A DNA stretch of 63,993 bases, filler included, from Asterionella formosa (Eukaryota): assembly GCA_002256025.1 (NCBI GenBank). It is 6 parts of 6 records of this genome, joined end to end, with 100 filler letters (N's around TTAATTAATTAA, not from the genome) between each part and the next. Parts side by side here need not be neighbours in the genome. Positions count along the whole stretch, not along the records: positions 32,145 to 42,739 come from NKIB01009318.1; 5 more parts are not named here. The stretch is one strand, 5' to 3'. Positions 21,445-53,524 of the stretch are shown here, one piece after another; within the stretch, counting starts at the first letter, position 1, and each line of letters begins with the position of its first letter. The notes under the pieces are model-generated. The model was not told the DNA's origin. It saw only the letters and a program-made list of their open reading frames with translations, and did not search any database. Made by a program: the position numbers and the translations under genes.

Positions 21445-21565
21445 ATGGGACCATGGATTGTTGGTTTCGAGATCAGGGAGGGTGATAAAATATATGGAAT
21501 CCAACGAATCGAGAATCAATATTCTTAGTAGTGATTAGAAACCAAGACCCAAAACATCTCGTCAT

Positions 21566-21744: not shown

Positions 21745-21946
21745 GTAAGCAAGATCATTTTGACGGGATCAAGGAAAGTGTGAGAAGTCTTGTTCGGGAT
21801 TACATGAGTAATCAGGCAAGAACAAGACTAGATAGACTATTAACAGAAAGCTCACAATATTACAAAGTGTAAAGTGAAAATACGTTTTCAGCTTTAGAGA
21901 TCTTAAAAGTAAGATCTGTGATATTTCAACTAGACAATTTAACAAA

Positions 21947-23470: not shown

Positions 23471-24976
23471 ATGCTGGTATCTGGTGCTCCGACTAGAGGC
23501 AGATATCACAACATCCCTTTTTCATTCACTCCATATATAATACGGGTAGGCGCCAAGGAATTGCCTTCTTTAAATCATCACCAGACCTCCATCATCCCAT
23601 GGCTTCCCGATCCTGACACCTTGTTTGCTCCGAATATGCTCTATCCCGATCTTATCATTCGGATCACGTTGGTCCTGGATGACGACAACTCGGAACTTAC
23701 ACCTTCCATTTGGCGCCGATTTCGTGTCAACGCTGGCATGAGCCTCGAGGCGTTTCAGGACAAAATTTTGCAACCGATTATGGGATGGACGCGCAACTAC
23801 CATTCTTATTACTTCGATAAAGGTGGCCAGAGGTATATTAATGAAGAGTTAACATCGAGAGACGCTGCAACTACTTCGTTGTTGGTGACCCCGTCGGCGT
23901 TGCCGGCTGAAAAGTGCCGACTGAGCGACCTGCTGACCAAAGAAAACGACGAACTTGTCTATGTCTACGATCTTGGTTGCTGTTGGCGGCACATACTTAG
24001 GGTGGAGCAGAGAATAGTCGATGGGGCGCATGGAAAGTGCCTCATTGTCAACGGTGCCATGCGATGCCCAGACGAAGATGGAGGCGGGTGTCGCGTGTAT
24101 CAATCGGAAGTTCTGGATTTGCTCAATCGTACACGCTCAGATCCCACAGATTTGTCGAATATTCGAGAGTTTGCACACAATTGCTTTCGCCGTCATACGC
24201 ACATGAATGTTCGGAACAGATTCGACCCCCAGGAATTTGACCTTGCCGCGACACAGCTTGCTATTCATACTTCGCTTCGTTCGAGAATTTCTGCACGTAA
24301 CGGAGGAGGCAAAATGATTGTGAGCGGGAATGAAGGGATTGATATCGCTCGATTAAAGCGACAAGCAGGTCAGCGGATTGTTAGAACGCAAGTGGAAGAT
24401 GGTTTTCATGAAGTATCTCTTGTCATGACAGAAGTTGTTAACTGGAAACCCGACGATCCAAGTGTTGCCCTGTGTGTTTGTGGGAATCCGAACAATCTGC
24501 GAACGTGTTCTGCATGTCATGTAACTTCGTTTTGTAGCCGTGAATGTCAAAAGAGAGAGTGGCCATTGCACAAGCAAATTTGCAGAGATGAAAAGGCAAA
24601 GGTAGAGTCATTTCAAGAAGAACTTGAGGGGAAATCAGCAGATGCCGCCCAAATTCTCGACAGTAGCCTCCCTGTGAAGGCTTTTGACCCAAGCAATCTG
24701 CGTTTCCGAGTTGGTGATCGAGTGGAGTGCATCATGGGAGAAGAATTGTGGGCAACTGGAAGAATAGTTCAAACTCACTACAAAGAGGACGACATGGAGG
24801 AGATGGCTCCATACCAGGTCAAGCTTGATGCGGCGAGTGCACGAAGGCTGGGAGCACCTTCACGAGATGCAGCTTTGATCTATGCGCCTTTTGACGATGA
24901 CTACTATATCCGAAAGCTTCCTTATCAAAAACCGAAATTTAAACCCAAGAGAATAGAGTATGAGATAGTAGACTAA
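23471..24976 (+). CDS. pRiA4b ORF3-like (MM3350-like) domain + MYND zinc finger + C-terminal SH3-like domain
   Basis: IWRRFRV...L..FQDKILQPIMGW..YHSYYF, YVYDLGCCWRH, GAMRCPDEDGGG, FDPQEFDL; MYND-like C.C...CSACHVTSFCSRECQKREWPLHKQIC; LRFRVGDRVEC...PYQVKLD...IYAPFDDD. First ATG 23471 (track start is GTG). Confidence 0.75.
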   Translation: MLVSGAPTRGRYHNIPFSFTPYIIRVGAKELPSLNHHQTSIIPWLPDPDTLFAPNMLYPDLIIRITLVLDDDNSELTPSIWRRFRVNAGMSLEAFQDKILQPIMGWTRNYHSYYFDKGGQRYINEELTSRDAATTSLLVTPSALPAEKCRLSDLLTKENDELVYVYDLGCCWRHILRVEQRIVDGAHGKCLIVNGAMRCPDEDGGGCRVYQSEVLDLLNRTRSDPTDLSNIREFAHNCFRRHTHMNVRNRFDPQEFDLAATQLAIHTSLRSRISARNGGGKMIVSGNEGIDIARLKRQAGQRIVRTQVEDGFHEVSLVMTEVVNWKPDDPSVALCVCGNPNNLRTCSACHVTSFCSRECQKREWPLHKQICRDEKAKVESFQEELEGKSADAAQILDSSLPVKAFDPSNLRFRVGDRVECIMGEELWATGRIVQTHYKEDDMEEMAPYQVKLDAASARRLGAPSRDAALIYAPFDDDYYIRKLPYQKPKFKPKRIEYEIVD

Positions 24977-24999
24977 GAGACTAGATCGCTTTAGTAAGT

Positions 25000-26751
25000 T
25001 TAAGGAATTGCGACTGGCTGTCGCGCGAGCTCTTGCTGAACCTCGTTGGGTATGTCGTTGGCTAATCGGACTACGTACATCGTCATTGGCGGGGTCGTTT
25101 CTTGTGCGTCGTCCATGGACATATCTTTAGGTCGTTCAGACAGCTTTCTAGGTACCACACAACCAGGGTTCTGATCCCCTTGCAAGCTGCCTTCTGCGAT
25201 AGCCTTCGCAGCTAGTTGTCCGCTCAAAATCGCACCTTCCATACTCGCGAGATAACGTTGTTTGGAAAAATCTCCAGCCATAAAAAAATTAGAAATCGGA
25301 GACTTTTGCGAGGGCCTGTATTGTTCGCAGCCAGGTAAGGTTTCATACACTGACGTTGGTGTTCGGATACATGCAAATTTGGTGACCTTGGCCATTGACT
25401 GGTCAGCTCTAATTTCTTCTGGAAAAAGGATCTCAAGTTCATTTAACGTCGCTTGGAGAATCTCATCATCAGACTTTGTCAGCCAACCGGCAGCTGGAGC
25501 AAAAACAAGCTCCAAAATAGAATGGTCATTGGAGGCATATCCCTTACAGGTTTCACTCATGTCTGCGTAGACAGACAACAATTTGCTACGACTGAAGATT
25601 AGATTGTCAACCGTTGAAAGTTTCCGATCAAGCCACAAGTGCAAGTTCATGACTGGAACACCACGTAAATTTACCAAGTCATCAAAGTATGGTACACCTC
25701 TCCATTCTGATGGACATAGCTTCTTGATGGCTTCTACCGGCATGGCATTTACATAAAAATCCGCAGATACAACCTCATTACCCCTTAGCAATAATCCAGC
25801 CACTGACTTGTCGTCATTCACAAGGATCCGAGTAACGGGAGAGTCTGTGCGGACCAAACCCCCACGAGTTTCAATGTATTCCTTGAGTGGTTCGCACAGT
25901 CGTTCCGTGGGCGATCCGTCCAGAAAAGCTATCTTGCTACCATGGGTTTCCTGCAAAAATCGGTTCAGCGCTATCAAAACACATTGCATGGAAAGTTTGT
26001 CAGGATCGATAAAATTCAGGGCCTTACTCATGGCTATAAATACTTCATTTGTCACACGATCTGGAATGCCTCGTGCTCTCATCCATTCTAAGACTGTCAC
26101 GCCTTCCTGGGCTTCAACATAATCTTGCCCAAAGATATATGCAGGAACGAGCCCAATTCCAAGTTTTATTTTTTCCAGCCACGTCAGCAAATCCGTATTG
26201 GAAAGAATAGCAACTCCAGCGTTTAGAGGCGCAGGCAAGGGAGGAAAGTCAAAAGTGGAGAATTCCCTCTTAGAGCCTCCAGGCTTTGCAAACAACATAG
26301 CGTGCTCCTTCCACTGAAGTCGGTCCGATATTCCTAGCTCGTCAAAGAGAGTTATAGCATTAGGATATGCCCCGAAAAAAACATGAAGTCCAGTCTCCAC
26401 GACATGTGTCCCGTCCGCTGACCTCCAAGCAGCTACCTTACCACCTAGCAAGTCACGCGCTTCTAGAACAATAGGGCAGTGACCGGCATCAACAAGGTGC
26501 TTCGCAGTCGACAAGCCGGCGAGGCCACCTCCCATGACAATGACTTTCTTTGGCTGTTTTGGTCGTGGCAGGCCCTTGAGATCAGCTACATTGCGTCTTG
26601 CTTCCACATGAGTGGGTTCGTTGTCAAATGGAGGACGTGCAATATCGACCATTGAAACCGCAGACAGATATGGTCTGCTGAAGGAAGCACACATGAATCC
26701 CCACGAAGCAGTCACCAAAGACAGCGCTAGGATACAGTGAAGCATCATCAT
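25000..26751 (-). CDS. PDS: 15-cis-phytoene desaturase, plastid-targeted
   Basis: GGGLAGL FAD motif, LGGKVAAW, ETGLHVFFGAYPN, FLQETHGSKIAFLDG, YLASMEGAILSG; signal peptide followed by Phe. Confidence 0.95.
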   Translation of the reverse strand: MMMLHCILALSLVTASWGFMCASFSRPYLSAVSMVDIARPPFDNEPTHVEARRNVADLKGLPRPKQPKKVIVMGGGLAGLSTAKHLVDAGHCPIVLEARDLLGGKVAAWRSADGTHVVETGLHVFFGAYPNAITLFDELGISDRLQWKEHAMLFAKPGGSKREFSTFDFPPLPAPLNAGVAILSNTDLLTWLEKIKLGIGLVPAYIFGQDYVEAQEGVTVLEWMRARGIPDRVTNEVFIAMSKALNFIDPDKLSMQCVLIALNRFLQETHGSKIAFLDGSPTERLCEPLKEYIETRGGLVRTDSPVTRILVNDDKSVAGLLLRGNEVVSADFYVNAMPVEAIKKLCPSEWRGVPYFDDLVNLRGVPVMNLHLWLDRKLSTVDNLIFSRSKLLSVYADMSETCKGYASNDHSILELVFAPAAGWLTKSDDEILQATLNELEILFPEEIRADQSMAKVTKFACIRTPTSVYETLPGCEQYRPSQKSPISNFFMAGDFSKQRYLASMEGAILSGQLAAKAIAEGSLQGDQNPGCVVPRKLSERPKDMSMDDAQETTPPMTMYVVRLANDIPNEVQQELARQPVAIP

Positions 26752-27205
26752 GGTCAGTTTATTACTTTTTCTTTTAGGTAAGTCGAGAATGGGACGAGCG
26801 CGACTACCGGTACCAGGTGTCTACGACCGGTCGTACGCACATATATAAAATTTGATAGCGTCGAGTCGAGGCAGTCGAAGGAGGAGCATGAAGCAAGCAG
26901 AGGGGCCACATCACATAATTCGGCTGGTGGCGGGACCAGAAGGTCCCCTACATACCGGTACTTACTTACCTTTTTGGAGCATACCGAAACCGATTCAAAA
27001 AATATACATAAATATATGAAAGTAATATATTTGAATTGCCGTTTTTAGTACGAACACCGTTTGACTCGCCGGATATCTCCTTGATGCACCCGCGTCCGTC
27101 CCGTCATGAGCAAACCACAGCAATTTTAATTGTTATTACATTTGACTTTGTTCATCGAAACCCACGTTTGTTAATACATCATCCGCAGCCACCACCATTT
27201 CAACT

Positions 27206-30200
27206 ATGGCGCTGTCAACTGGGGGCCAAGGCGCTTTGAGACAGCTTCCGTCTCCATCTGAAAGCCAGACGCAAAGTCTAGCATCGCTCAGTCTTCCTCC
27301 TGCCTTTCGTTCGGAGCGAAAGCTTTTCTCGACGAGCAACAATCTCGGTGTGGACGTTCTCAAGGTTGTGAGGGTAAGAGATTTTTACTGGAGTAGTCTA
27401 CTGCATTTGTTGACATTTGTGTAGTTTTTAGTTGTAAATTTGCATTTTCTATCCTTTCACTGTTTCTAACTCTCTCTCTTTCCAATGACGCTTTCGATGA
27501 AGAATGGTAAACTGCAGCAACGCAGAGTCGCTTTTTCGTCGGACAATCGGACCATTTATGTCACGACTAATCGCATTAGATCTGTCAAACATTTGCTAAA
27601 GACGCTCAACCCGGCACAAAAGAATCCGGTTTCAGCAAAGGGTATCGATGTCAGTACGATTCATTCAATTCAGAGAGGTCAACAGACTAATCGTTTCTTC
27701 ATGGCCAGGTAGGTTACTATTGCGATGTGAAAGTGCGAGCTTTAAACGGAACGAAAGTAAGGTTTCTAACGCAATCTTACCCGTTCTTCCAATATTAGAT
27801 CGATTGACACTTTGCCTCAGCACGCCAGAGACGATCTTCCGGGGGACGATTCGCGCTGTTTAAGTATAATCTATCGAGTCTCGACGGCACAGGCATCAAG
27901 TTATACAGATAACATTAGTGGGACCAAACCTAAAGTTGTCCCTCATCGATTTGATACCCTTGACTTGGTTGTTCCCAAAGCTGCCGACTATCAATCTCTA
28001 GTAACTGCCTTGGAACAGATTGTGGAGCGATATCGACAGGATATCAAGACGTATTCTTCAGAGTTGCTCTTTCTGGAATACCATTGGATTGACTTGGAAA
28101 AGGAAATCTCGCAAGAAATAAATCAAGGAGAGTTTACGACAATGTGTGATCGCATGAACGTTCCCATGAAAAAACCTATATTACAGACATATTTCCAAGA
28201 TTTTTGCCGAGAGCTCGGGGCTGAAGATGAGACAATTAACATTCGCCAAACTTACTCTCTGCTGGAAGTGATAAAGGAAGTATGTATAGATGATGTGGGA
28301 ATCGGCGAACTAGAACATCCATTGCATAAGATTTGGAGCAAAATTTTGGAAACTGATCCTGTGCCTTCCCCAACGTTTGCTGGTGCTGATCCACAAGCGC
28401 AGATAGAGTTGGAACTAAATCCAGTGGAACCTTCCATATCTGCGGTAGCCTTTCTTTCATTTCTTCGATCGCAGCAACGCGAGTATTCTGTCAGCCTTGA
28501 TAATGTTCATGCCTTGGCAGGTGTACTCAATTCGCAGGTGACATTCGAAGATATTTGGCCAGCGGTTGATAGAAAAACTAACCCCATTGAAAAGGAACGA
28601 ATAAATAAGTCTCGATTTCTTTCATTTATGACATCGGATTGGAATGATATTATGGATCCAAAATTGGGTACACCGGGCGCTTGTGACATGACACAACCGC
28701 TATCTCACTACTGGATCAATTCTTCCCATGATACCTACCTCGGACAACTTCCAAATTCGTTCAAGCCGAGGACACCTAGAGAATCGACTCATTCTGCAGT
28801 TGACATTCAGATGTATGTGGCTGCTTTGAACCGAGGGGTTCGATGTCTGGAGGTCGACTGCTGGGATGGCTTGTATGGTGAGCCTGTAGTGGCGCGCCTT
28901 CGACCGACTGACAACACTTGTACAATTCCGTTCTTGGATATCTTGCGACTACTTCGTTCCTTCTTGAAAGAAAACCCAGACTCATTTCCAATTATTCTTT
29001 ACATGGAGAATCATTGTTCTGTATCGAAACAAGAAACAATGGCAAGAGATTTGGAAGATGTTCTTGGAGCCGAAAACATGCTTTACATACCTCCAGAAAC
29101 TATGAAGGAAAAGTCGTCTCTTCCAAGCCCAGATGCTTTGCGAGGCAAGATAGTTGTCAAAAGCAAGCGCCCAAAGATCATCAAAGAAGGGGCAACAATT
29201 TTAGACGATGACTTTGACGACGAGAATACTTTAATGGAAGACGATGAAGACATCGTTTTGGACAGCATTCTGGACGATGACGATATCGAAGAAGACGCTA
29301 AGGGCTGGATCGTTGGTTTCGAAGCAGCTGGTCCAATTCGATCGAAATCGCCAAAGAATGCGAAGCGACATGTGACAGAATTATTAGAAGAAGCAGTCCG
29401 AGAAGCCACCAATGCAAAAGTTGATTTCGAGCGAGCTGAATTGAAAGCAAAAGAATTGTCAATTGATGCTGCGGACACTGAACGTATGGCATCGAGGTTG
29501 GCGTCCGAGTGCGGACTTTCTCTTGGACAAATCAAGGCATTAGCGCTAGAGGAGAAAGCAGCTCTCAATACTGGCTGCGACGCCGACGACGAGGGGACCG
29601 AAGTAAACCTCAACGACTTCACCACCAGTGACACTGGTGAAAATGAACCCTTAAATCAAGGAATTGAGGTCCACGACTTCTTTGGGGAAGCAGTTGAGGG
29701 TGCCCGGGCAACCCATTCGACTGCAGATACTGAAGCATTAAAAGCATCATTGGCGGTAAATGTAGCAAAACATAATTTGGATAAAGCTGAGGAAACCTTA
29801 CGAATTGCAAAGATGGGACTTGAAAACTCTTATAAAGCGGAGAAGGATGCTACCGAGGCATCGCGTAAGGCATCTGCTATAGCAAGGGCGAATAGAGAGC
29901 ACGCTGATACCGCAAGGAGTCGAGTCGACACGGTCAAGGACCTGCTGAAGAAAGTGAAAGACGGCGCATCGAGTGCGGAAACAGTTGCTGTTACAGCAGA
30001 GACCGAAGCCAAGATCAGCGAGCAACGTGCAGCCATGACCGAAGCTAGGGCTTCTCGGGCCCTTGCCACTGCTGATAAGGAGCGCGCAAAGGCAGATCTC
30101 GAAACCAAGAGAGAAGAGCGTCTCGAACAAGAGGCTGCCCAATATCACGAAATCTGTGTCGAAGCAACAAAATTGGCCCGAACGTGCAGAGACAGAATGG

Positions 30201-31987
30201 AAAAAGCAGCAGGAATGCTTGATCGTTGTAATGAACAAATCAAACTGATTGAAAGAAGTTCCCAATATCAACAGGAATTGCGAGAATCAAGCACAAACAG
30301 CGGGGCAGACTCAGATGTAGATGGAGTACCTCGGTATAGCAGCCGGTTCCTTGACAAACACGCTTCAAAGCTGGAAGAGCGCAAGATGTGCTTGCAATTG
30401 ATAAAGGAATCGTCGACAGAGAACTCAGCAGCCGAAGCAAAGAGGAGGCGAGCTCAGTCTGCTTTTGAAGATGCAGCTCACACCTGGAAGGGGCAGGCTG
30501 AAGTTGCTGCTGCGGCTAGGAAGCAAGCTGACCGAAGTTCACAAATCGCCGAGGAATTTGCAGAGCACGCTGAGGAGGAGCGTGAAGCTGCCACGCTACG
30601 GCACATTGCACGCGAGAAAGCCCAGAAAAGTATTTCTCAGACAGATAATAATCGAACAAGTGCTCAGGCCCAGCTCGCTGAGGCAGAACGAGCGTCAGCT
30701 GAAGCCGCCAGTCTTGCTACCGAGAGTCGGCAAAACGCAGAGCGCTTGGCACGAGAAGCTGCTTCTGCAAAAGATCATACACATGCACTTCGTGCAATAG
30801 ACGATGCAGTGTTGGCTCGAGATGCTGCCCAATCCGCTTTCAATTCTGCCCTCAACAACAAACTTGCTGCCGAGTCGAAGGCTGCCAATGCAAAGCGGAT
30901 TTACGATACGTCGGCAGAGGTCTTCTCTAGTGCGAAACGAGAAGCAGCGGCTGAAGCGCATAACTTGACTGCAAGACGACAATGGGAGAAAAATGCTGTG
31001 CTTGCATATAGCAAAGCCCTTATCTTCAGGAAGGAAGCACAGCATGCTCACGAGCTGGCAAAGATTGCGGCTACCACATCTTTTAAAAAGGCTGCTGCGG
31101 AACGGCATGCACGAGACTTTAAGGACAAAATGGACAAAACAACAATGATCTGTCCTGACCTAGCCTCTATGACTGCGTTGCATAGCTGCAAGTTCCGATA
31201 TTGGGAGAAAAGCCATTCACTTCCATTTTTTTACATGCACAGCATCTCGCAGTCTCTGGTTCTGGAAAAACTAGAAACCGACGAAAGAAAGACTCGCGAG
31301 GATTTCGCCAAATTTACAAAAACCCATTTGTGCAGAACTTTTCCATCGTGGAAAGTGACCGAAAAAAGTAGCAACCTCAATTTTGATCCTGTCGTTCAGC
31401 ATTCACTTGGCTGTCAGATTGTTGCGATGAACTTTCACTCTGCTGATGAACCATTGCTAGTCAACGATGGTCGTTTCCGAGCGAATGGATCATCAGGTTA
31501 TGTTCTGAAGCCGCCTCATCTCATCAACGACAAGAGTCCCATAGATCGGGAGCAGCAATGGAAGATTTCTGTTCTTTGCGGGAGTTGTCTTCCCAGGGCA
31601 GAGTCGTACATGTCAAAAAAGAACATTTCTGTTAGCTCGTCGTCGATCCTCTTGAACCCTTTTGTTCGGGTGACACTTTTCGAAGGAAACCCCAATTCTG
31701 GCCCAGTATTAGTTCATTCGACTGCCCCTGCAAAGGGCAATGGCCTGAATCCAGTTTGGGACAGTGAGAAGGACACGTTTGATATGTTTGTGGTAAAACC
31801 ATCCATTGCAATTGTCCTGTTCTCGGTGTATGATGCTAACACGAAAGATTTTATTGCCGGAGCTGCACTTCCGCTTAGTTGCTGCCGAGAAGGGTATCGC
31901 AGCATTGCCCTCTTTGATTCTATGCATATGAGATGTGGTCCGTACGCTTTCGCTTCATTGTTTGTGAAGGTTCAAAAACTGTCCTAA
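27206..31987 (+). CDS. PI-PLC-like protein (PH, EF-hand, X, long coiled-coil linker, Y, C2); probable exons 27206-27373, 27503-27708, 27799-31987
   Basis: DMTQPLSHYWINSSHDTYL, RGVRCLEVDCWDG, ENHCS, LPSPDALRGKIVVK, GCQIVAMNF, GYVLKP, NGLNPVW, GYRSIAL; GT-AG introns keep frame (first acceptor less certain). Confidence 0.85.
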
Positions 31988-32044
31988 AAGTTCGATGATG
32001 ATTAATTACAAAGAGTTGACATATTGCTATCTGCGATTGCACCA

Positions 32045-32144
32045 NNNNNNNNNNNNNNNNNNNNNNNNNNNNNNNNNNNNNNNNNNNNTTAATTAATTAA
32101 NNNNNNNNNNNNNNNNNNNNNNNNNNNNNNNNNNNNNNNNNNNN
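32045..32144. other. Artificial contig linker
   Basis: N44-TTAATTAATTAA-N44. Confidence 0.97.
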
Positions 32145-34312: not shown

Positions 34313-35694
34313 ATGCCGAGTAAAACATTAGATCTAATGAAAAATCTATTCACAGACGTTATACCAATCACTAGTCTTTTCAAGATGGGATTCCATAAGA
34401 ATTATCCGAAAGCAGTGGTCTACGGCCCAGTCTTCAAAGGGGGACTCAACATGGTCGATCTCACTATAGAGGATGGAGTGAGGGGAATCACGCACTTCCT
34501 TCATCACATGTATTCAAAAGACTCGATTGCAAAGTTGATTCACATCTCACTTCAGATAATGCAACTAGAGGCAGACAGAGGTCAAGATTTGTTCATGGAT
34601 TCCAGCATTTATATCTCATATGTGACTCCTACATGGATAACTAATCTTCGATCCTTTATGGAGCAGCACAACTTGAGGATTCGGTTAAAGGATCCGTGGA
34701 AATTGACTCTCCAATGCGAAAACGATCAATTCATCATGGAGATGTTCACAGTTAAGAAAATCAGCTCATTCAAGCTATTTCATCTCAATTGCTGTAGAAT
34801 GTATCTAAATGTGTTGACTCTTGCAGACATCACCACTGCCGATGGGCTCAGTATCCGGCAGGATATAGTAGAGTGTAGGCTTCCAAGAGATCGAAAATCA
34901 CCTCTGGTATGGCCAAATCAACCGGAGCCAACCCCACAACAGAAATCGAAATGGAAGGCGGGTCTCCTCTCATGCATGTTGAAATCAGCATCGAGGGAGC
35001 TATTGCAGCTAACAAAGCTACTACTTGGTCAATGGTTGGGCACATTTATGCAAAAGTGGAAATTCAGGTACTCAGTGAGTACTCAGCAACTCTGGGAAAA
35101 AAGAGGACATCGCTGGCTGATCCACGAAAAAGTGTCATCTCACAGAAGATTTGTTCAGTGCATGGAGGTGGGCTACTAAGCAGGTAAATCTCCCCCTCAC
35201 ACAGCTATTCCATGTGATGTAACCAGCGGGTGGAGGTTTACCTTCCATTCTCGCCGAGAACATATAAAGGAAAGGGACCCGATTCGGCTGACATTCCGTT
35301 CCCATATTCAGTTGCTACCGTAGATCTCCCAACGTCTGTTGGGTTCCCTGCATTAACCGATAGCCACCAGCGAAACCCGTTTATGCCGCCATCTCTCCCT
35401 GCGTTTACCATGTTACATTGGAGCGGATAGTTCCCTTCAACAGAGAGCAGCCTCTTTTGCATGGACTATCCACCTATGATCATAATCCTATGATGCATCA
35501 TAGGAATATGATGATTTTTATTTGCAAACGCTGCATCGGGGACATAGGAAGGTCCCTGATGAAATTTCTTTCTGTGCAAGCCCAGTTGATGGGGAAAAGG
35601 TGGGGAATAGCTCTACACGGGCAAAACGTTTTGCTATAGCATCGGTTATCACGTTTATCTCGGAGTTTATTAAGCATTTTCACATTCAAACAGA
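34313..35694 (+). mobile_element. Non-LTR retrotransposon (RNase H-bearing LINE, diatom type): post-RT region and start of RNase H, degenerate
   Basis: KMGF.KNYPKAVVYGP..GGL, TWITNLRSFM, NDQFIM, LNCCRMYLNVLTLADITTADG; RNase H-like SPVDG...SSTRA at 35530-35694. Confidence 0.75.
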
Positions 35695-38470
35695 GTCTGC
35701 AAATAAAAACTATCATATTTCCATGATGCATCATAGGATTGTGATCATCTGATCATAATATTTCGTTATATCATCTAATAATTTTCATGAATGCCTTTGT
35801 AATTTAAATAGTAAACCTTTTGACTACATATATTTAATTATTATATGAATTGTTTCTATTTGATTCCTGTATTCGAATTTCTTGGTAGGATAATGTACCA
35901 GTTCAAGTTATGTAATTTGTCTCATCATTTCCATCCGCTCATCACTCCGATTTTTGCAACAACAACGAAATACTAGCGATGACAAGCGGAATGAATGTTT
36001 GCGATAACGTCTTCAATTTGTTGGTCAAGTGATCATTATATCTTCGAGTAATCGTCATGTGCAGTGAACCTTTGTTCATAATCATTCAATTAAGAGTTTA
36101 CAGGAGAGAAGAAACCATTCGAACTCGTAATGTTTCCGCACACAGTGCACAAAGTATATCCGTTTCGTTCACTTCAGCATGACAATCTCGCCAATCAACC
36201 CGTAAACAAACACATTCTACTTGTTCTCATTGACATTTTCAATTCTCACATGATACTACATCTACTATTGAGATTCAGCATAGAAGGAGATATGAAAATG
36301 TGCGTAACAGACAACTGTCCACATAGCTATAGTTATAGAATGATTCTGATTAGAATTTCATTTTCATATCGCTCGCTCGTTTCTGCATTTGGTATACTGT
36401 ACTTGAATTAACTATTGAACTTGTCCGCATCTTTGAGACCATCAAGCAAGAGAGCGAAAGCAAGTGGCTCTTTTCATTGTTGTTTGCTCGTAGGAAGAAT
36501 TTGATATCTGTATCGTCATTTGCTTGTTGGAATGGTCCGTTGCCTCAAACTTGCTTGGCGTGTGCGTGCACACACTGTCGACTGGTTTTCAATGGTATGT
36601 TGTTCTTGTATTCACTGTTGAGCTTGTCCGCATCTTTGTTACCATCAATAGAGCGACAATAGGGTCTCTTCATTGTTGTTTGCTCCTGGAAAGTCGGTGT
36701 CCGTGTCATCCTCATCAACAGAGAGACAAGTTCTTTTTATCATTGCGGTTTGCCGCTGGAAAATGTGGTACTCCTAGTATCGTCATTCGCTTGTTGGAAC
36801 CACTGTCCTTTGCCTCAAACCTGATTAGCATGTTCAAACCTGATTAGCATGTGTTTATGTGCACTGTCGACTTGTGTACATTACAGGCGGAGTGACTTAG
36901 CTACTAAATTGCGTGATATAATAATATAACCCGTAGCACGATGCAGAATACAGTTCCCAATATCATCTCATCATGATTGATAAGATGATAATGTGATATC
37001 ATGATAGGGTTAGCTATATCGATGCATACATCACCAAAGTATGATGCGTAATATTGAATAAAGTACATCACATAGCTATGATACATTGATCACATTGATC
37101 ATAAAACTATGATGATTTTATAAAATATTTATGATAGAATTTTGATCAAAATATGATTATGTTAAAATATTGCAATGACAATTTTTATTACTATATTCAT
37201 GGCATATATATTTTTGAAATCGTTCTGTCATGTTAACAAACAATGCCTGCTGCTTCATGAAAAGATACATTGTAGTAAAGCACATGACAAGAAAAGAAAG
37301 TTTACGCAATACATAACGAAAAACATTGTGGCTTCGACACATTGCGCATTAGAAGGATGGATGATGTTTAAGGTAATGAAGCCATCAATGTGGTACTTGG
37401 ATGACAATCGTTGGGAGGCAGGCAGGACAACAACAAATTGTCAACTAAACGCACATTTCCTTTTTTCTCAGTTGATTCAACAGCTCGTTTCGCTTGTTGG
37501 GGAGCACCAATGTAAAACAAAACCAAATTGCGTAAGTGCTGTTGTCGCTCGTTGGACCTATTCACTTCTGTTGGAACAAAACTGACAAAACGTTTACCTT
37601 CTCTCAAAGTTAAGTTGACAAAAATGAACCGGTAAGTTTTATTCGACAACATTGGATCCCCGAAACTTACTTATTCAAGAATTTGGCTTACTGACAGGTT
37701 ACTATTACAGACTTATGCATCAGTTGCATTGATTTGTGGTAAGTGAAGCAAGAGGATACGATGGAATTGCGTGTTCTTGTGTCAATGTAACATGACTAGC
37801 TAACAAATCATCCTTCTCATTGTAACTGTAACTGCATGCATAGGACAATAAAACCAATCAAACAACGGAATAGTCGGCGAGTTCAGAGTGACACTAACAG
37901 CAGGAAAAGAGTCGCAACCATTAGTTGGCACTGCCTCACTCATGATTCAGAATAGAGGAAGGAAAGCGCGAGACAGGAACAATATACATTGAGCCAAGTA
38001 GAGAGAGACGTCTGGTCGCTGGCCTGTTAAATCATAGAAAGCAATGCTAAATTTGATAGTTAAATTACGATCCATTTCAATCTATTTTAAACAATGCTTT
38101 TGATTTCTTTTATGATCATGTTTAAGATAGATATACGATGAAACAATTCAAAAGATAGCATATAGTTTAGCTGATTTTAGGATATGTTGTAGTTATAATT
38201 TACATCGGGCAATCACGAGAAGTGAAAATAACATGAGAAGGTTTATGATATTGATGGGAAATGTTGTTGATCAGCGTATATACATTGTGTGATGATAATG
38301 TTCTTATTATCATAATACTTCAAGGTCGGTAAAATATTAATAAATCATCATAGTTACAAGATACCTTGATCATATTTTTGATCCAAAAATTATCATATAT
38401 ACGAAAATCCTGTGCCACTTAGCGTACGATACCCTTGATCCTATATGCATGATACTTTTTATTTGCAGAC
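35695..38470. mobile_element. ~2.8 kb non-autonomous TIR DNA element inserted into the LINE RNase H region
   Basis: TIRs GTCTGCAAATAAAAA(C/G)TATCAT at 35695 and inverted ending 38470; GA dinucleotide on both flanks; AT-rich interior with internal direct repeats (~36415-36870). Confidence 0.75.
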
Positions 38471-40259: not shown

Positions 40260-40331
40260 TTGCGGGAGTCGAACCTCACAACCTCAGATCAAAGTCAACG
40301 TGCTCAACCAACTACCGTAAGCCATTCCTTC
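40260..40331 (-). mobile_element. Isolated tRNA-like head of the SINE family
   Basis: Matches ~20356-20421, with a TACCGTA insertion in the A box. Confidence 0.8.
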
Positions 40332-40842
40332 AAATGGATAAATAACTATATATGCTAACGATAATAATAGCTTCTGTTAGGCTAGTAGCTGTAGTTAGAA
40401 TAGTGGCTTCCATTGAAAGAGCAGCTCTTTGCCATTCCTCCGTTGAAACCATCCAGGTCATCTCAAAAGAGGGGTCTAAAAATCGTGTACGTCAAAACAT
40501 TGTTTACTTTAGAGAAAGACGAACAAGCTACTAGCTACATTTTTATTTTTTCTAAGTATCATTTTTACTACACACTTCAAGTAGGTTCTAGAGCAATATT
40601 CGAGTTTGTACATGTCAAGTGCTCCATGTGATGTTGCCAAATATTGCAACCAAGATTGGCGACACAATCGCTTCTTTTGGTACCAAAATGTTATGCTGAA
40701 CTTACAGGGAAATGGATAGAGTACATCATGTTGACTATACCCAATCGAGTCCCAGAAGCGGCCGCTCAGCTGTTTGTAGACCGGGTACCTGGTACCGACG
40801 CATATACACATAAAATGTTTACCGGTCGTGCACGGTATAAGA

Positions 40843-41248
40843 TGTCAAGAATATTAGCCCAAGTCACAAGGATTGTGGACTCGATTGTAATCGAACGAGT
40901 CGAATGTTGCATTGCCACGTCAATCAGCTGCCTAACGAGATCAAAGATTGAAGATTTCTATGGAAATGTTAAGTGGAAACTCGAAGAGAGTCTGAGAACG
41001 ACTTTGCAGAAAGCAAAGATGCATGGAAAGGAAACATTTAGTTTAGCTTATAATTTAATTTGAGTTTTAGATTATCAACCGAGGAAACAGTGTGTTAATT
41101 GACAGGAAGGTCAATTAGTCTATCTAGCAGGAAGGCTAGAAGCAGAGACAAGAGAGAAAGTAAGTGGTACTAGGTAGTACTGCGATCACGTAAGAGTCTA
41201 CGTGAAGAGAGACCCAGCCCGCGGGAAGGAGTACGGACCATTTCAACA
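40843..41248 (+). repeat. 5' LTR (406 bp), TGTCAAGAATAT...TTTCAACA
   Basis: Same termini and internal blocks as the LTR at 11464-11842. Confidence 0.8.
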
Positions 41249-41290
41249 CGCTTTAAAGCGGATAGGTTTGAAAGGGTGGTACTACTCAAG

Positions 41291-42739
41291 ATGGGAATTG
41301 ACGACGACTCGTCAGGAGTGCGGTTGCCAACATTTGATGGTACTGATGCCAAGTGGCATGTTTGGAAAGCAAAGTTTGTGGCCTACCGGTATGCCTGCTA
41401 CAAAGGTTTTGAAGGAATCCTAAATGGAGACGAAGTATCACCAGGGGAGAGAGATTCAGCTGGAGTGAAGATTGTTCCGAGTGACAACGATGAGAAGCGT
41501 GCGAAACGAAATAATACGGTTGCCTTTGCAAGTTTGATTATGGCATGTCAGAGTGGACCATTTGGATAAGTAAATGGTGCCAGAAGTGAAGAGTTTCCCA
41601 ATGGAAATGCGAAGGAAGCGTGGGACAAGTTAGTGTCTACATACAAGTCAAGTAGGCCTAATATGGCAAATGTGATTGCATTGTCAGGTCAATGGACAAA
41701 ATGCACGATTAACGAGAGTGAGAACCCCGACATTTGGTTTGTGGAGTTGGACAGAATTCGAGAACGATTGAGCTGTACAAGCTCCGCAATTTCGGATGGT
41801 GCCTATGTGGCCCATGTTATCAATAACCTACCGGAAGTCTACAAGAGTTTGGTGGTTGGAAAATTTGGTCTCGCAAGCTCCGAGCTCACGATCCAAGAGG
41901 TCAAGTAGAATGTACGCAACTATTACGATTTGTATGTGCGTGAGGAAACCAAGAGGAATAAGAATGGCGAGCAGGCCTTCCTTTCAAAAAGCAAGTTTAA
42001 GGGAGACTGCAGGAAGTGTGGCAAGTATGACCACAAGGCAGTTGATTGCCGAAGCAAGGGCAATACTACAGGAAAGAGAGAATTAACTCCCGAGCAACGA
42101 AATAAGAGAAAGAATGTGAAGTGTTATAATTGCCAGAAGATGGGGCACTATGCCAGTGAGTGCAACAATCAACAAAATGCACCAATCAAACAGAAGGGAG
42201 AAGACGCCAACACCACTACGCAAGGAATGTTCGTGGTGACGTGTATTGAGGCAAGGTACAACGAAGAGGTAAATCATACGTGCGTGCATAAGGACCCTTG
42301 GCTACTAGATAGTGGCGCTACGGTACATATATGCAATGATGAGCGCATCATGGAGGACAAGCGCGCAGTGCGTGAAACTGTTGTTGTGGGAAACGGCGCA
42401 GCAATTGTTGCGACCGTATCAGGCACGGTGACCCTTACGACGACAGACAAAGGAAAAGTGTTGAAACTCACCAATGTGCTCTATGCACCGGAGTTCAAGC
42501 AGAACATTATCAGCATTTCGAGAGTTATTGACAAGGAAAATAAAGTTATGTTTGACGATGATAAGATGACGATCAGAAACAACAACGGATTTTTGATCTG
42601 CAAACGTGATAAAACGAGGACAATTGGTGCAATGTACCATGTGCAAGGAACGCCTATTCTAAAGGAAACGGTGTTGGAGGTTGAACAAGAAAGCGAGAAG
42701 CCAACACAACAATCTATCGACTATGATACTAAAGAAGAC
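41291..42739 (+). pseudogene. Copia gag-pol with two in-frame stops (TAA 41567, TAG 41906)
   Basis: ORFs 41276, 41633 and 41930 are one frame; CRKCGKYDHKAVDC, CYNCQKMGHYASEC, DSGA. Confidence 0.88.
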
Positions 42740-42839
42740 NNNNNNNNNNNNNNNNNNNNNNNNNNNNNNNNNNNNNNNNNNNNTTAATTAATTAANNNNN
42801 NNNNNNNNNNNNNNNNNNNNNNNNNNNNNNNNNNNNNNN
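42740..42839. other. Artificial contig linker
   Basis: N44-TTAATTAATTAA-N44. Confidence 0.97.
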
Positions 42840-43257: not shown

Positions 43258-43379
43258 AAATTTACTTAGGTCCATTATAAGGGAAATCTCTTCATTGTCC
43301 TGGGCCCCCCTTAAGTAAAATCAGTCAAATTCAGTCACGGCAGTGTACATTGGGGGGTCCAGGACAATGAAGTATACGG
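43258..43379. mobile_element. Terminus of a Tc2/pogo-like DNA transposon (...ATACGG|TA); body probably extends to the contig start
   Basis: Reverse complement of 53300-53420; similarity ends at the flanking TA; internal 21-bp inverted repeat CTTCATTGTCCTGG(A/G)CCCCCC. Confidence 0.7.
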
Positions 43380-44063
43380 TACTTATATTGTTACTCTACC
43401 AGGTACCGCACAGTACGTTTGGACATGAACGATTGGTTAATCGTGAATTCTTTTGACTTCCATATCTGCATGTTACGTCATTATCAATCGCCAGGGTTCC
43501 GATAACTGCGATGCCTGGCACCCATCGTAGTCTCTACAAGGCAACCCATAAGAAGTCATTATGCATCGACTGCTTGTTTTCTCTAGATGTCATTTTTTAT
43601 TCACAGTGCTAGTACTGCACTGTACACAGGGATTTCGGACATGCTACCTGGTACGCAATATGTCAACTGGTAAGCAGGCAGGTATGCATAAATGATAGCA
43701 ATCCGTTCGGTCAAGAAGCAAGGATCATACCGTAGTTACCCGTCGAACCTGCATGTATGTGTAATCCGTTAGGGCAAGTACATAAATTCATACATGAATA
43801 AATGCACGGTTCATTACCTTGTGCACCTCGGCCGCTCTGCTTTCCTTGATCACGCACAGCATCTTGCTCCTGCATGTCATGCCGCCCAGTAACCCTAGTA
43901 CAAACAACCCCAGCTTGAAAAAGCAAGGAAATCGATTAAAAAAATATAGAGAGTAAAAATAAAAAATAAAAAATAAAAAATAAACGATTCCCTTCCTCAA
44001 ATGCATCAGGTCCATTCTTAACAATCTGATACCACTAGCTACTCTTACTAAAGACGAGACAAC

Positions 44064-46538
44064 ATGATTGATTATCCAATCGTTGACGATGCTGCAATGG
44101 AGACACTCGCAATGAATGTGGAAGCAACAAATTGCAATCATCATCGTCATCGTCGTTACTCAGAATCAGAACTTTCTGTTTCAACGACTCTCAGTCTCAG
44201 TTTAACCATGACACAGCTGTCAAACCAAACAAGCAGTTCCTCTTCTTCTGGGGATGAGAATCTTTCGAATGGGGAAAATCTCGTTGGTGCAGGGATGAGC
44301 ATTTGTTTTGACGATGAAGAAGTAGAAGAAGGAGGCGCTACTATTCAAGCTGCAAACAACCATGATGATGATGATGACGAAGAAGCGCAACATCAGCACT
44401 ACACTCGCAGTAGTAGTCATAGGACAGTATCACTCAAAGGTGGGAAGGATGAATCAAAAGGAACCTTTGAACACTACGTGGAATATGAAGAACAAATCGA
44501 CCAAAATCAAGCACGACGTAATAGTAGTAAAAACAAGTACGAATGGTCAGCAGCGAAGGCAAGCCTACAAATGGATGTTGTGCATCAGGAAAAACTGGTG
44601 AATTCTTTGAAGCGAGAGAATTCGACATTAATCTTTGCCGAGAATAACACCATACCGAGGGCCATGGAACCAGAACAAAAATTCGAAGGATCCAGAAGTG
44701 CTGTTTCCATATGGGATGACTCTCTCATGGCAGCTCCTCCCCCTCCTCTCCATCGAGGACGAGAAATTTCTGAAATGTCGACTCCTGGCGCTATTGCCGT
44801 TCCTGGATTCCTTGGCCAGGATAACGTCGCGAATGACGACACCACTGTCACTGTCCATCCTGACGAGGATGGCGAACTAGGAGGCCTTCCGACATATCAC
44901 GCAACTCTAGTCCACGATGAAGAAGTTGTCCTTGCCATTAGTGCCATGGATATAACTGAACAAGAATCAAAGTCTAAACGTCGTCAAAGGATTACATGTA
45001 TCGGAGGAGTAACAATAATTGCAATTCTTGTGACTATAATTGTCGCAGTGATGCTTAACCAGGGACAGGATCAGCCACAGTCACACTCACCATCATCTTC
45101 ACCTTCTTCAGGGCCAACCAACATGCTTGTTGGCTTGAATGAAATTGTAGCTCTGGATGGGGGTTTTCCTGCAGAAACGACTGCGCAATACGAAGCATTG
45201 CAATGGTTGTCGGACAATTCAAATTCAGCGGAATACTCAAAGGAAGAGTTGCGCCAGAGATATTCCCTGGCAACACTGCTATACTCCAATCTGAAATACA
45301 CGAACCAAGCTCCTGATTCCTTATCGAATAAATCTCACTGCACATGGTCCGGAATTGAATGTAGAAACGAAAAGGGAGCAGGCAACATGCAAGTGATTGG
45401 GATCCATGGAACACTGTTGAAACCCACAACGGATTCGGTTCTTACGATTCCACCAGAGCTTGCTCTTCTTTCCAACTCACTGCAATATTTAAAATTTCCA
45501 AATACGACTTTGGAGGGAACATTTCCAAGTGAGTTGGGACGTTTGACAGAATTAAAGCTGCTGGAATTTTCAGCTAATTCTGAACCCACTAAAGGACAGT
45601 TGTTTTCCGAAATTGGTCACTTGCATCAACTTGAGCACTTGTCGCTTCCCAAATGTGGCCTCACTGGAGTATTGCCAACAGAGATTGGACTAATGAAAAA
45701 CCTTGTGTTTCTGGATTTGAGTGGCAACAACTTTGCATCAACCATGCCCACACAGATTGGACTACTGACTCAATTGGAACACTTTAATTTACGAGATAAT
45801 CAATTCTACAACGATTTTCCCCCGCATGTGGGGTTTCTCAAGAATCTGACCTATTTCGATATTTCTAATAACCGGATCGCATCTAGAGATTCCAATGGTT
45901 ATCTACCTTTGGAGCTTACTAATCTCACGAAACTCCAATTTCTCGATGTTTCTGGGAATGGTGTTCACGGATTCCAAAATGTTTTTTTCTGTTTCATGGA
46001 TAGTGCCCTATGTGACCTGAAAATGTCATACCCACTGCCAAGCTTTCCACTCCCATCCAACCTTGGACAACTCACTTCACTTACATGGCTTGATCTAAGT
46101 TCCAATGATATTCATGGTGCATTCCCTGCTAGTGCGATTAGATACCTTACAAATTTGGAGCGATTCGACATTCATACTAACAATTTCGCTGGGGGTGTTC
46201 CTTCAGAGTTGGGGTTGCTCACCAAGCTCACTTATGCTGACTTGAACGAAAATTATTTTACGGGTCCACCTCCGGAGGACTTGTCCAAACTCAATCATTT
46301 GAACTTTTTAAATCTTCAATCGAATTACATAAGAGGAGTGATCAATTGCAGCATGTATTCCATTTCCACCATTTGGGTTGACTGTGAATTACTCGATTGC
46401 AGTGGTGATTGCAAGTGCGTCAACAAAAATATGGATTTGGTAGCAGCAACGCTAATTCAATGTCCTGCGGCGGGCTCGAATTTGACCAATGTAACTACAA
46501 TTCACTCCAAACTCGCTCAGAGAACCCTCACTATATAG
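44064..46538 (+). CDS. Single-pass (type II-like) LRR receptor-like protein, diatom family
   Basis: Disordered N-terminus with PGAIAVPG, TM helix, cap QYEALQWL...QRYSLATL...CTWSGIEC, plant-type LRRs (LPTEIGL, LDLSGNNF); no kinase domain. Confidence 0.88.
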   Translation: MIDYPIVDDAAMETLAMNVEATNCNHHRHRRYSESELSVSTTLSLSLTMTQLSNQTSSSSSSGDENLSNGENLVGAGMSICFDDEEVEEGGATIQAANNHDDDDDEEAQHQHYTRSSSHRTVSLKGGKDESKGTFEHYVEYEEQIDQNQARRNSSKNKYEWSAAKASLQMDVVHQEKLVNSLKRENSTLIFAENNTIPRAMEPEQKFEGSRSAVSIWDDSLMAAPPPPLHRGREISEMSTPGAIAVPGFLGQDNVANDDTTVTVHPDEDGELGGLPTYHATLVHDEEVVLAISAMDITEQESKSKRRQRITCIGGVTIIAILVTIIVAVMLNQGQDQPQSHSPSSSPSSGPTNMLVGLNEIVALDGGFPAETTAQYEALQWLSDNSNSAEYSKEELRQRYSLATLLYSNLKYTNQAPDSLSNKSHCTWSGIECRNEKGAGNMQVIGIHGTLLKPTTDSVLTIPPELALLSNSLQYLKFPNTTLEGTFPSELGRLTELKLLEFSANSEPTKGQLFSEIGHLHQLEHLSLPKCGLTGVLPTEIGLMKNLVFLDLSGNNFASTMPTQIGLLTQLEHFNLRDNQFYNDFPPHVGFLKNLTYFDISNNRIASRDSNGYLPLELTNLTKLQFLDVSGNGVHGFQNVFFCFMDSALCDLKMSYPLPSFPLPSNLGQLTSLTWLDLSSNDIHGAFPASAIRYLTNLERFDIHTNNFAGGVPSELGLLTKLTYADLNENYFTGPPPEDLSKLNHLNFLNLQSNYIRGVINCSMYSISTIWVDCELLDCSGDCKCVNKNMDLVAATLIQCPAAGSNLTNVTTIHSKLAQRTLTI

Positions 46539-46935: not shown

Positions 46936-49023
46936 TTACCCATCGGTAGAGTTGGAATAAAATGCCGGGCAGTTAGTCAATAAATTTCCGTCCAAATGGG
47001 AGCAATTGCAATCTCCACTGCACTGTAGTTGGTCGCAGTCAACTTGAAGCGAGATATTGGGATACATGCTACAGTTAATTATTCCTGCAATGTCATTTGA
47101 TTGAAGATTCAGAAAATTCAAAAGAGTTAGTTTGGACAAGTCCTCCGGAGGTGGACCCGTAAAATCATTTTCGCCCAAGTCAGCATGAGTCAGCTTGGTG
47201 AGCAACCCAAATTCAGAAGGAATACTACCGAATAGACTGTTTTCAACGAGAATGAAACTTTCCAAGTTGGTTAATTTTTCAAGCAAACTGACGGGCAGGT
47301 TACTTTGAATTTCATTGTCACTTAGGTCCAGCAAAGTCAGCAATGTGAGCCTTCCAAGGTCGGATGGCAGAGAATAGTCAGGAGGCAAAAGCTGAGAGAA
47401 TTCTCGGCAAGCTTGGTTATTATTCTCATGACATTGAAAGAAATTGACAAATCCTGAAATGCCATTCCCAGCAGCATCGAGATATTGGAGTTTCGTGAGA
47501 TTAGTAAGCTCCAATGGTAGATAACCATTGGAATCTCTCGATACAATCCTGTTATTAGAAATATCGAAATAGGTCAGATTCTTGAGAAACCCCACCTGAG
47601 GGGGAAAGTCGTTGTAGAATTGATTATCTCGTAAATTAAAGTGTTCCAATTGAGTCAGTAGTCCAATCTGTGTAGGAACGGTTGATGCAAAGTTGTTGCC
47701 ACTCAAATCCAGAAACACAAGGCTTGTCATTTGACCAATCTCTGTTGGCAATGCTCCAGTGAGACCACAGTTATGAAGCGATAATTTCTCAAGTTGATGC
47801 AAGCGACCAATTTCGGAAAATAACTGGCCTTGTGTAAAGTCTGGATTTGCTGAAAATTCCAGCAGCTTTAATTCTGTCAAACGTCCCAACTCACTTGGAA
47901 ATGTTCCCTCCAAAGTCGTATTTGGAAATTGTAAATATTGCAGTGAGTTGGAAAGGAGGGCAAGCTCTGGTGGAATCGTAAGAACCGAATCTGTTGTGGG
48001 TTTCAACAGTGTTCGATGGATCCCAATCACTTGCATGTTGCCTGCTCCTTTTTCATTTCTACATTTAATACCGGACCATGAACAGTGAGATACATTCAAC
48101 AAGGAATCAGGAGCTTGGTTCGTGTATTTCAGATTGGAGTATAGCAGTGTTGCCAGGGAATACCTCTGGCGCAACTCGTCCTGTGAGTATTCCCCCGAAA
48201 TTGAATTCTCCGACAACCATTGCAATGCTTCGTATTGCGCAGTCGTTTCTGCAGGAAAATCAGGATTCAGCGCTACAATGGTATACAAACCACCAAGCAC
48301 ATGTGTTGGACTCAACGAAGGTGATATTGACAATTGCTGCTGTTGCTGCTTCGTTTTAGGAGAACGAAGGACCATTGCTGTGACAACAACAGCCACAAGA
48401 CCTGCAATGATTGTTACTGCTCCAATACATGTCGTCATTTGATGACGTTTAGACTTTGCTTCTTGTTCAGTTGTATCCAGGGCACTGGCATGAACAACTT
48501 CTTCATCGTGGACTAGAGTTGCATGATAGGTCGGAAGGCCTCCTCCTTGTTCTTCGTCTTGTTGTTGGTCCTCCTCCTCCTCATTATGATAACTATCATT
48601 ATCATCGTGGACTGTGACGTTAGCGACGTTATTGTCCATGGCTCCAGGAACAGCAATAGCTCCTGGAGATAATGTTTCATACAGTGCTCGTTGTCGCCGG
48701 AGATGAGGGGGAGGAACCGAGTCGTCCAATTGTAAGGCGCTGCCATTGACTGTTTCAGTCTTGTCCCCGCCTTGTTCCATCCTCAGGTCTTTCTTCGTTG
48801 GGTGCATATCCGTGGCTTTATCAAACGAAGGATCCATAAGATTCATTCGACTCTTAATAATTTCTTCCATAAGTGCAGTGACAGTCGATTCATCGTCGTC
48901 AGCGTCAAGTCGTTCCTCTGTGCTTGGACAAGTCCCAGTATTGTCCCTAGGATTGTCCTCATTAGTAGTGTGCTCCTGTCCGTTGATTCGAAAGTGTTCA
49001 CCATTTGATTCTTGTTGTCCCAT
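46936..49023 (-). CDS. Paralogous LRR receptor-like protein, convergent with the first
   Basis: Same architecture; first in-frame ATG 49023 (track start 49044 is GTG); core near-identical to ~45165-45960. Confidence 0.82.
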   Translation of the reverse strand: MGQQESNGEHFRINGQEHTTNEDNPRDNTGTCPSTEERLDADDDESTVTALMEEIIKSRMNLMDPSFDKATDMHPTKKDLRMEQGGDKTETVNGSALQLDDSVPPPHLRRQRALYETLSPGAIAVPGAMDNNVANVTVHDDNDSYHNEEEEDQQQDEEQGGGLPTYHATLVHDEEVVHASALDTTEQEAKSKRHQMTTCIGAVTIIAGLVAVVVTAMVLRSPKTKQQQQQLSISPSLSPTHVLGGLYTIVALNPDFPAETTAQYEALQWLSENSISGEYSQDELRQRYSLATLLYSNLKYTNQAPDSLLNVSHCSWSGIKCRNEKGAGNMQVIGIHRTLLKPTTDSVLTIPPELALLSNSLQYLQFPNTTLEGTFPSELGRLTELKLLEFSANPDFTQGQLFSEIGRLHQLEKLSLHNCGLTGALPTEIGQMTSLVFLDLSGNNFASTVPTQIGLLTQLEHFNLRDNQFYNDFPPQVGFLKNLTYFDISNNRIVSRDSNGYLPLELTNLTKLQYLDAAGNGISGFVNFFQCHENNNQACREFSQLLPPDYSLPSDLGRLTLLTLLDLSDNEIQSNLPVSLLEKLTNLESFILVENSLFGSIPSEFGLLTKLTHADLGENDFTGPPPEDLSKLTLLNFLNLQSNDIAGIINCSMYPNISLQVDCDQLQCSGDCNCSHLDGNLLTNCPAFYSNSTDG

Positions 49024-52762: not shown

Positions 52763-53299
52763 TGTCGACGATGGTGTGCAGCAGCTGCTTAATGACCAGA
52801 TTTTTATTGCATGCGTTGAGGTTCGCTGCCGTATAGTAGCTACGGGTGGTATGTAGAGCTACTGTTGAAAAAATCCTCCTTTAGCTGTTTATAAAAATTG
52901 AATTACTGTACTAAAAAATGGTTCCTGTATTTCAACCCTAGTAAGGCAAAAATTAAAATACTGTATTGCTTATGTGGTACCGTAGGGTTGCCAAAATTCT
53001 CTGGAACTAAGAATTTATACAGTACTGTATGAGCGATTTTTGAATGACTTGATTCCATTTGAAATATTGAAATCAGTGGAAATCTGTGCGTAAGTACATA
53101 GATTCCTTTTTCGAACTCATTACATTTATTTATATTAACATTCTACATCGCTTAATGCGTATATATATCGAAGATTATGGTTCAAATACCGGTATACTAA
53201 CCCTAACCCTAACACTAATGGCAAATATTTGAAAGTGCACTCAAGTGAGTGGTGTGCATATGATGTCCAATGATGATCATCTACTGGTTTGCCCGTATA

Positions 53300-53424
53300 C
53301 CGTATACTTCATTGTCCTGGACCCCCCAATGTACACTGCCGTGACTGAATTTGACTGATTTTACTTAAGGGGGGTCCAGGACAATGAAGAGATTTCCCTT
53401 ATACTAGTCCTAAGTTAATTTTAT
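53300..53424. mobile_element. Terminus of the same Tc2/pogo-like element (TA|CCGTATACTTC...), cut by contig end
   Basis: TA at 53298-53299 then CCGTA; reverse complement of 43258-43379. Confidence 0.7.
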
Positions 53425-53524
53425 NNNNNNNNNNNNNNNNNNNNNNNNNNNNNNNNNNNNNNNNNNNNTTAATTAATTAANNNNNNNNNNNNNNNNNNNN
53501 NNNNNNNNNNNNNNNNNNNNNNNN
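53425..53524. other. Artificial contig linker
   Basis: N44-TTAATTAATTAA-N44. Confidence 0.97.

Follow-up and report, generated by a model that had tools for sequence, protein, structure and literature searches.

Two 6-base insertions in the gag region of a copia-type retrotransposon (copy B), TA-CCGG-TA and TA-GGCC-TA, are derived and private to that copy; in each, a self-complementary 4-mer lies between two copies of a TA that is single in the empty state. Together with a third private insertion of the same copy, they are probably members of a single genome-wide class of palindromic, TA-bounded micro-insertions that most likely includes TA-CCGG-TA and TA-CC(A/T)GG-TA and probably also TA-C(C/G)G-TA and TA-C(A/T)G-TA. 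The process producing them is still ongoing. The copy B insertions and the recurrent words are likely to represent canonical excision footprints of TA-duplicating cut-and-paste transposons of the Tc1/mariner/pogo type. This kind of mark is already known, and it is the density and uniformity of the marks that are unusual here.

The window, that is, the whole stretch of DNA analysed (63,993 bases), consists of six pieces of about 10.6 kb each joined by spacers of the form N44-TTAATTAATTAA-N44 (Table 1). It is gene-dense eukaryotic DNA with long ORFs, among them Ras, an ARM-repeat protein, an M3 peptidase, an amine oxidase, a PI-PLC, LRR proteins and kinases, and the sequencing runs containing its DNA are labelled algae, freshwater or lake metagenomes.

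Table 1. Features discussed in the text, with positions counted along the window.
Feature	Position	Strand	Remarks
Chain of four units with shared TAs	1121-1149		One CCGG, two CCTGG, one CCAGG
Spacers	10627-10726, 21345-21444, 32045-32144, 42740-42839, 53425-53524		Features on different pieces need not be genomic neighbours
Copy A, gag of a second copia subfamily	10727-11419	-	'Empty' comparator of the original prediction; 97% identical to L003
TACCGGTA in unique intergenic DNA, polymorphic	23033-23040		Only TA in three other runs
Extra bases in run X10	23098-23101		1 behind 23098 T and 12 behind 23100; depth 11.8 of 11.8
TA-CCG-TA in tRNA-like repeat head (40260-40332)	40313-40319		Possible 5-base scar; TACSGTA class enriched
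Copy B, copia-type retrotransposon	40862-42739	+	LTR, leader, gag, start of pol; truncated at piece end
Third private 6-base insertion of copy B	41277-41284 (inserted bases 41278-41283)		Reads TG-GTAC-TA
TA-CCGG-TA = TACCGGTA	41384-41391		6-base insertion at TA; adds Tyr-Arg (or Arg-Tyr) to copy B gag frame
TA-GGCC-TA = TAGGCCTA	41653-41660		6-base insertion at TA; adds Arg-Pro
Repeat end	43258-43381	+	Second copy at 53298-53421 (-); 96% over 124 bases

Six-base insertions in a copia pseudogene

The host of the insertions is a retrotransposon of the Ty1/copia type, in which gag, with its zinc knuckle, comes before protease, integrase and RT, arranged in copia order. A Pfam scan found zf-CCHC and Pol_BBD in 41930-42739 of copy B, and a close relative, the protein P0001, carries PF14223, PF00098, PF22936, PF25597 and PF07727. 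Copy B, whose frame is interrupted by stops at 41567-41569 and 41906-41908 (residues 93 and 206), is a pseudogene, and no working protein gains a dipeptide.

Both insertions lie exactly at the positions given by the original prediction, and both are 6-base gaps relative to the gag of copy A (10727-11419, minus strand). With only about 71% identity over 926 bases and many other indels between them, copies A and B as a pair give no polarity; the indels between these two copia subfamilies are ordinary and without TA-X-TA form. A short third gag fragment, 90% identical to copy A (10876-11077), is also present at 4325-4530 on piece 1.

Polarity was obtained from closer relatives. A search with the copy A gag protein yielded P0001, an intact copia polyprotein of 1196 aa, and ten shorter relatives, and copy B was translated with X at its two stops for alignment with them. 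Copy B was the only aligned sequence with the extra YR and RP, reading FVAYRYACY and YKSSRPNMANV where P0001 reads FVA--YACY and YESS--NMANV. The dipeptide at site 1 (41384-41391) is absent from P0001, P0003, P0004 and P0008, and that at site 2 (41653-41660) from P0001, P0003, P0004, P0005, P0007 and P0009. P0001 is otherwise very near copy B in the protein alignment, and L001, the contig encoding it, has 96% DNA identity to copy B.

The same result was obtained with DNA. A metagenome scan using P0001 returned five loci, among which L001, L002 and L004 are 94-96% identical to copy B DNA; from 40862 onward, copy B shows 95-96% identity to L002 and L001. At site 1, copy B reads GCC-TA-CCGG-TA-TGCC, whereas L001, L002 and L004 read GCC-TA-TGCC. 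At site 2, AAG-TA-GGCC-TA-ATATGG in copy B stands against AAG-TA-ATATGG in L001 and L002, and L004, which diverges just before the site, is likewise without the insertion. Since close homologues and near-identical contigs show empty TA sites, both gag insertions are derived. The predicted gain of 6 bp at a duplicated TA is thus borne out against P0001, L001, L002 and L004, and the longer state, which would have been ancestral had the prediction failed, is the derived one in these closer alignments.

The third private insertion precedes the gag ATG (41291) by 8 bases. Its empty form in L001, L002 and L004 is GGG-TA-CTC, and the filled form in copy B is GGG-TG-GTAC-TA-CTC, which fits TA-palindrome-TA with one mismatch, only if one base changed afterwards. 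Over 1.8 kb, copy B and L001 differ by exactly three indels of at least 2 bases, all of them 6-base insertions. In the 3.9-kb comparison of L001 with L002, the sole indel of at least 2 bases is a 3-base one, TA-C-TA versus TA, which separates L001 and copy B from L002. Therefore, all four indels of at least 2 bases among copy B, L001, L002 and L004 lie at a TA, with the cores CCGG, GGCC, C and an imperfect GTAC. The TA-C-TA indel (L001 at about 1790 versus L002 at about 2160, in copies 97.8% identical) corresponds to one Thr codon gained or lost.

The copy B insertions are in frame because they consist of 2 + 4 bases. The suggestion that such scars could add dipeptides to proteins therefore holds formally, but the host here is a copia gag pseudogene, and none of the 20 TACCGGTA sites of the window lies inside the 15 counted ORFs. 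The protein effect is theoretical in this DNA, as the only in-frame cases lie in a dead retrotransposon gene, where the scars are neutral marks.

Recurrence, placement and polymorphism of the words

The word of site 1 is strongly over-represented in the window. TACCGGTA was observed 20 times (0.18 expected), TACCWGGTA 20 times (0.23 expected) and TACWGTA 17 times (5.3 expected, an enrichment of about 3-fold), and for each of these three words 0 of 100 shuffles reached the observed number; TACSGTA was observed 11 times against 2.49 expected, a number reached by 1 of 100 shuffles. After homopolymers, TACCGGTA is the top over-represented 8-mer and TACCAGGTA the top 9-mer of the window. Among the CC-N-GG units, 20 have A or T as the central base and 2 have C or G, a predominance to be expected from the resolution of an A:A or T:T mismatch. 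The window holds no copy of TAGTACTA (the GTAC core), and none of TACCATGGTA, the full-retention form, or of TACCGCGGTA. Moreover, TAGGCCTA is not enriched (1 observed, 0.42 expected, reached by 33 of 100 shuffles), which makes the GGCC core a singleton, and the second transposon family with GGC ends that had been proposed from it is a conjecture from a single event.

The CCGG and CCWGG sites, with a density of about 0.6 per kb, are placed far from randomly. Within 800 bases upstream of ORF starts, a zone making up 13.9% of the window, lie 31 of the 40 sites (p = 2e-19), while a single site falls inside an ORF, although the 15 counted ORFs make up 40.7% of the window (p = 3e-8). This TACCWGGTA, at 16209-16217, belongs to an mTERF-like ORF (15529-16707, minus strand); a 7-base insertion cannot be in frame, so that it is either native sequence or lies inside an unrecognised intron. 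In 8 of the 40 sites, the TA is common to a neighbouring unit, and one chain comprises four units (Table 1). In an independent assembly, the 300-base flank of the copia element in L002 holds two TACCGGTA and one TACCWGGTA, and the copia interiors of L001 and L003 contain no words of the CCGG or CCWGG type. A short interstitial telomere-like run of CCCTAA-type units at 53195-53215 directly adjoins a TACCGGTA near the piece end. Literature searches on TACCGGTA and on TACCAGGTA/TACCTGGTA returned primers and barcodes only, with no mention in algae found, and a search on excision footprints of diatom transposons found nothing relevant.

Comparison between sequencing runs showed that the class includes recent events. 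Contigs of four runs (X2, X7, X8 and X10) were placed on 21445-32044; the polarity of the gag sites rests on the proteins and metagenome contigs described above. The 6 bases at 23033 are absent from X2 (depth 98 of 98), X8 (3.8 of 3.8) and X10 (11.8 of 11.8), and X7 gives no cover there, so that all three covering runs show the short state. These three runs differ from one another, with base differences by far most numerous in X10, and the insertion at 23033 is therefore derived in the lineage of the window. By comparison, at least one other run also carries each of the sites at 23072, 23273, 23328, 23358, 23371, 26805 and 26953. With some sites found in other runs and 23033 absent from them, the class comprises both old and very recent events.

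In addition, X10 carries 13 extra bases at 23098-23100, which include TACCAGGTA; from this we infer a 6-base unit (with one mismatch) and a 7-base unit stacked at one TA. The only other multi-base indel among 12 of the 13 indel rows, those that were listed, is a 3-base deletion at 26780. The contigs of X2 and X10 break beside motif sites (23281/23326, 26815 and 26945/26961), which hints at further variation and proves nothing, and X8 shows a joint from 23312 to 26826. An element-occupied allele was not seen in 21445-32044 in any of the covering runs. The same piece holds a very high-copy repeat at 21483-21944, which contains tandem units of about 27-30 bases. Its summed X2 depth is about 56,600, against roughly 100-150 for most of the unique DNA nearby, and loose ends accumulate at 21482/21483 and 21944-21946.

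Probable excision footprints and competing explanations

Excision would produce such marks in the following way. A cut-and-paste element would insert at a TA and duplicate it, and upon excision the non-transferred strand would be cut a few bases inside each inverted end, leaving the same short 3' overhang on both flanks. As the ends are inverted copies of each other, these overhangs would be self-complementary (CCGG, GGCC, GTAC), or nearly so around a central mismatch (CCAGG versus CCTGG), and after annealing and ligation a TA, the end bases and a second TA would remain. A self-complementary overhang such as CCGG could anneal perfectly and yield one invariant product, while an odd-length overhang such as CCAGG would give the A/T ambiguity seen in the window. 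The former presence of a transposon at these sites, its family and the length of the stagger are the inferred parts of this scheme. The longer state is derived at the gag sites and at 23033, and the TA is single in the empty and double in the filled state at both gag sites and at 23033, as well as, with one mismatch, at 41278-41283.

Known elements leave comparable marks. The footprint of Minos, a member of the Tc1 family, is 6 bases long, consisting of four end bases plus TA, and would match the 6 extra bases (TA + 4) at 41384, 41653 and 23033, which would make it the nearest counterpart in length. The end 4-mer of Minos is not known to be self-complementary and would give two alternative footprints, whereas the cores found here are perfect palindromes that would ligate without mismatch repair. 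In general, Tc1/mariner footprints are described as the first or last 2-4 end bases enclosed between two TAs through end joining, and Sleeping Beauty leaves TACAGTA or TACTGTA (PMC6943129; footprints also in PMC8151067 and PMC2874221). The words of the window resemble them in the duplicated TA and in the few bases between the TAs, palindromic or nearly so around an ambiguous central base. CCWGG is ambiguous between A and T at its centre just as the Sleeping Beauty footprint C(A/T)G is. The cores of the window words, CCGG and CCWGG, are 4-5 bases long, whereas that of Sleeping Beauty has 3. For the density of about 0.6 per kb, the chains and the upstream concentration, no Tc1/mariner counterpart was found in the available parts of these three papers (PMC6943129, PMC8151067, PMC2874221).

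A further comparison is offered by rice, where, according to the portion of the study available, only 8 of 94 excisions counted as 'perfect', with the target site duplication remaining in exactly two copies; the others showed deletions (18 bases on average) or filler (13 bases on average), and 74 of 160 gene-associated polymorphisms lay in upstream regions (Roffler and Wicker 2015, PMC4423477). As in rice, the comparison of close genomes points to excision as one origin of small indels close to genes, but the products are uniform words here and, as far as that text goes, mostly messy in rice (PMC4423477); the uniform words would thus need unusually stereotyped repair.

The original excision-scar proposal is supported in part, by the derived state, the duplicated TA, the recurrence of CCGG and the polymorphism, but neither a matching TIR element nor a transposase was found in the window. 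Two TIR scans of the 64 kb revealed no TA-flanked element with CC...GG, CCG...CGG or GGC...GCC ends, so that the TIR families with matching termini that were looked for are missing from this DNA; the hits obtained were the motif itself or the inverted LRR gene duplication, and one scan gave 5 hits on the real sequence and 4 on the reversed-sequence control. Pfam scans of 59 window ORFs (14 + 45) detected no transposase domain. In addition, the three different cores (GTAC, CCGG and GGCC) that copy B carries within 380 bases would call for three families of elements, which is awkward for the footprint model, and the 5-base core of CCWGG exceeds the 2-4 bases described for known elements, which counts against it.

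Three other explanations were considered. An origin by double-strand-break repair without any transposon is unlikely. In this reading, a break by a TA would receive a few untemplated bases, and snap-back of the polymerase-theta type would then copy these bases and the TA into a palindrome. Templated insertions of the snap-back kind are typical of theta-mediated end joining, and such repair would account for palindromes with arbitrary, non-recurrent cores (GGCC, GTAC) and requires no missing element; yet it predicts neither a preference for TA in the arms nor a fixed core, while 20 + 20 copies carry CCGG or CCWGG and all clean events lie at a TA. Less likely again, the CCWGG units might be made or used by a PIF/Harbinger-like family duplicating CWG, with the GGTACCW arrays as its preferred target and not as Tc1/mariner scars. 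The 5-base core, a misfit to the 2-4 bases given for known Tc1/mariner footprints in the available part of PMC6943129, would speak for such a family, but the window contains no such element, and the 6-base TA-CCGG-TA events, with their plain TA empty sites in unrelated contexts, would be left unexplained. The least likely explanation is that the words are selected promoter elements, binding sites of a dimeric factor spread by slippage and selection with the gag cases as unrelated accidents, since for all their palindromic form, homotypic clusters and upstream position (31 of 40), a dead gag and an isolated TA (23033) have newly acquired these very 6 bases, a core of 4 or 5 bases and the sharing of TAs are more readily explained by insertion than by a binding site, and slippage cannot create a first unit. 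Each of the three accounts for some of the observations but not for the recurrence at plain TA sites.

If the words are excision footprints, their consequences may reach further. It is conceivable, as a tentative proposal, that most multi-base indels of this alga are scars left by a single very active TA-targeting family, or by a few such families, in a self-feeding process that builds promoter GGTACC tracts and occasionally yields dipeptides. Each scar would add two new TAs in the favoured GGTACC context and the process would thereby feed itself, building GGTACC-rich tracts before genes, while in coding DNA a 6-base product might now and then be tolerated by selection as an inserted dipeptide. 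In that event, the departure of transposons, more than their arrival, would write promoter sequence and some variation in protein length. Moreover, were the scars what they seem, this genome would preserve past cut-and-paste transposition in an unusually clean and dense form, with about 0.6 stereotyped scars per kb in the window, mostly upstream of genes. Such a record could serve to measure, in a wild alga, how often excision occurs, which targets are chosen and how faithfully the breaks are repaired, and to test whether scars alter promoters.

Other repeats and duplications of the window

The original prediction had pointed to a TA-flanked element with CCG...CGG ends at 43379 and 53300 as a possible source of the scars. 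Only one end of this repeat was found, with no second end in the window. At 43381/53298 it reads TA|CCG..., beside a hairpin whose perfect 21-bp stem is separated from the homology boundary by 9 bases (-23.5 kcal/mol, z = -7.5, with 0 of 200 shuffles folding as well). The repeat at 43258-43381 therefore has, a short way in from one terminus, the kind of stable hairpin known from Helitron/Helentron-type ends, and by its shape this terminus resembles a Helitron-type end more closely than a TIR end.

In the third case of the original prediction, in the A box of a putative SINE, the difference comprises TACCG plus one further base and is not a clean 5-base insertion. The comparison involves two copies only, 40260-40332 and 20356-20422, which are 84% identical over 73 bases with a 6-base gap and a T-arm-like stretch. 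In the tRNA-like head at 40260-40332, ARAGORN found 0 genes and Rfam 0 matches. The case fits the enriched TACSGTA class as a possible scar, not an established one.

At 35474-35750 the window also contains a MITE-like element, about 270 bases in length, whose terminal inverted repeats are long. The TA-flanked span that a TIR scan had proposed here, 35489-35735, was rejected, as its inverted-repeat similarity runs further outward on both sides and the TAs are probably internal. As well, the ORF of 1345 aa encoding the ARM-repeat protein holds a tandem duplication of 1.8 kb, 99.4% identical between 5984-7791 and 7895-9703, which sits atop older repeats of about 130 bases. Two LRR genes, at 44879-46418 and 47002-48544, form an inverted duplication, arranged tail to tail and 82% identical over 1.5 kb.
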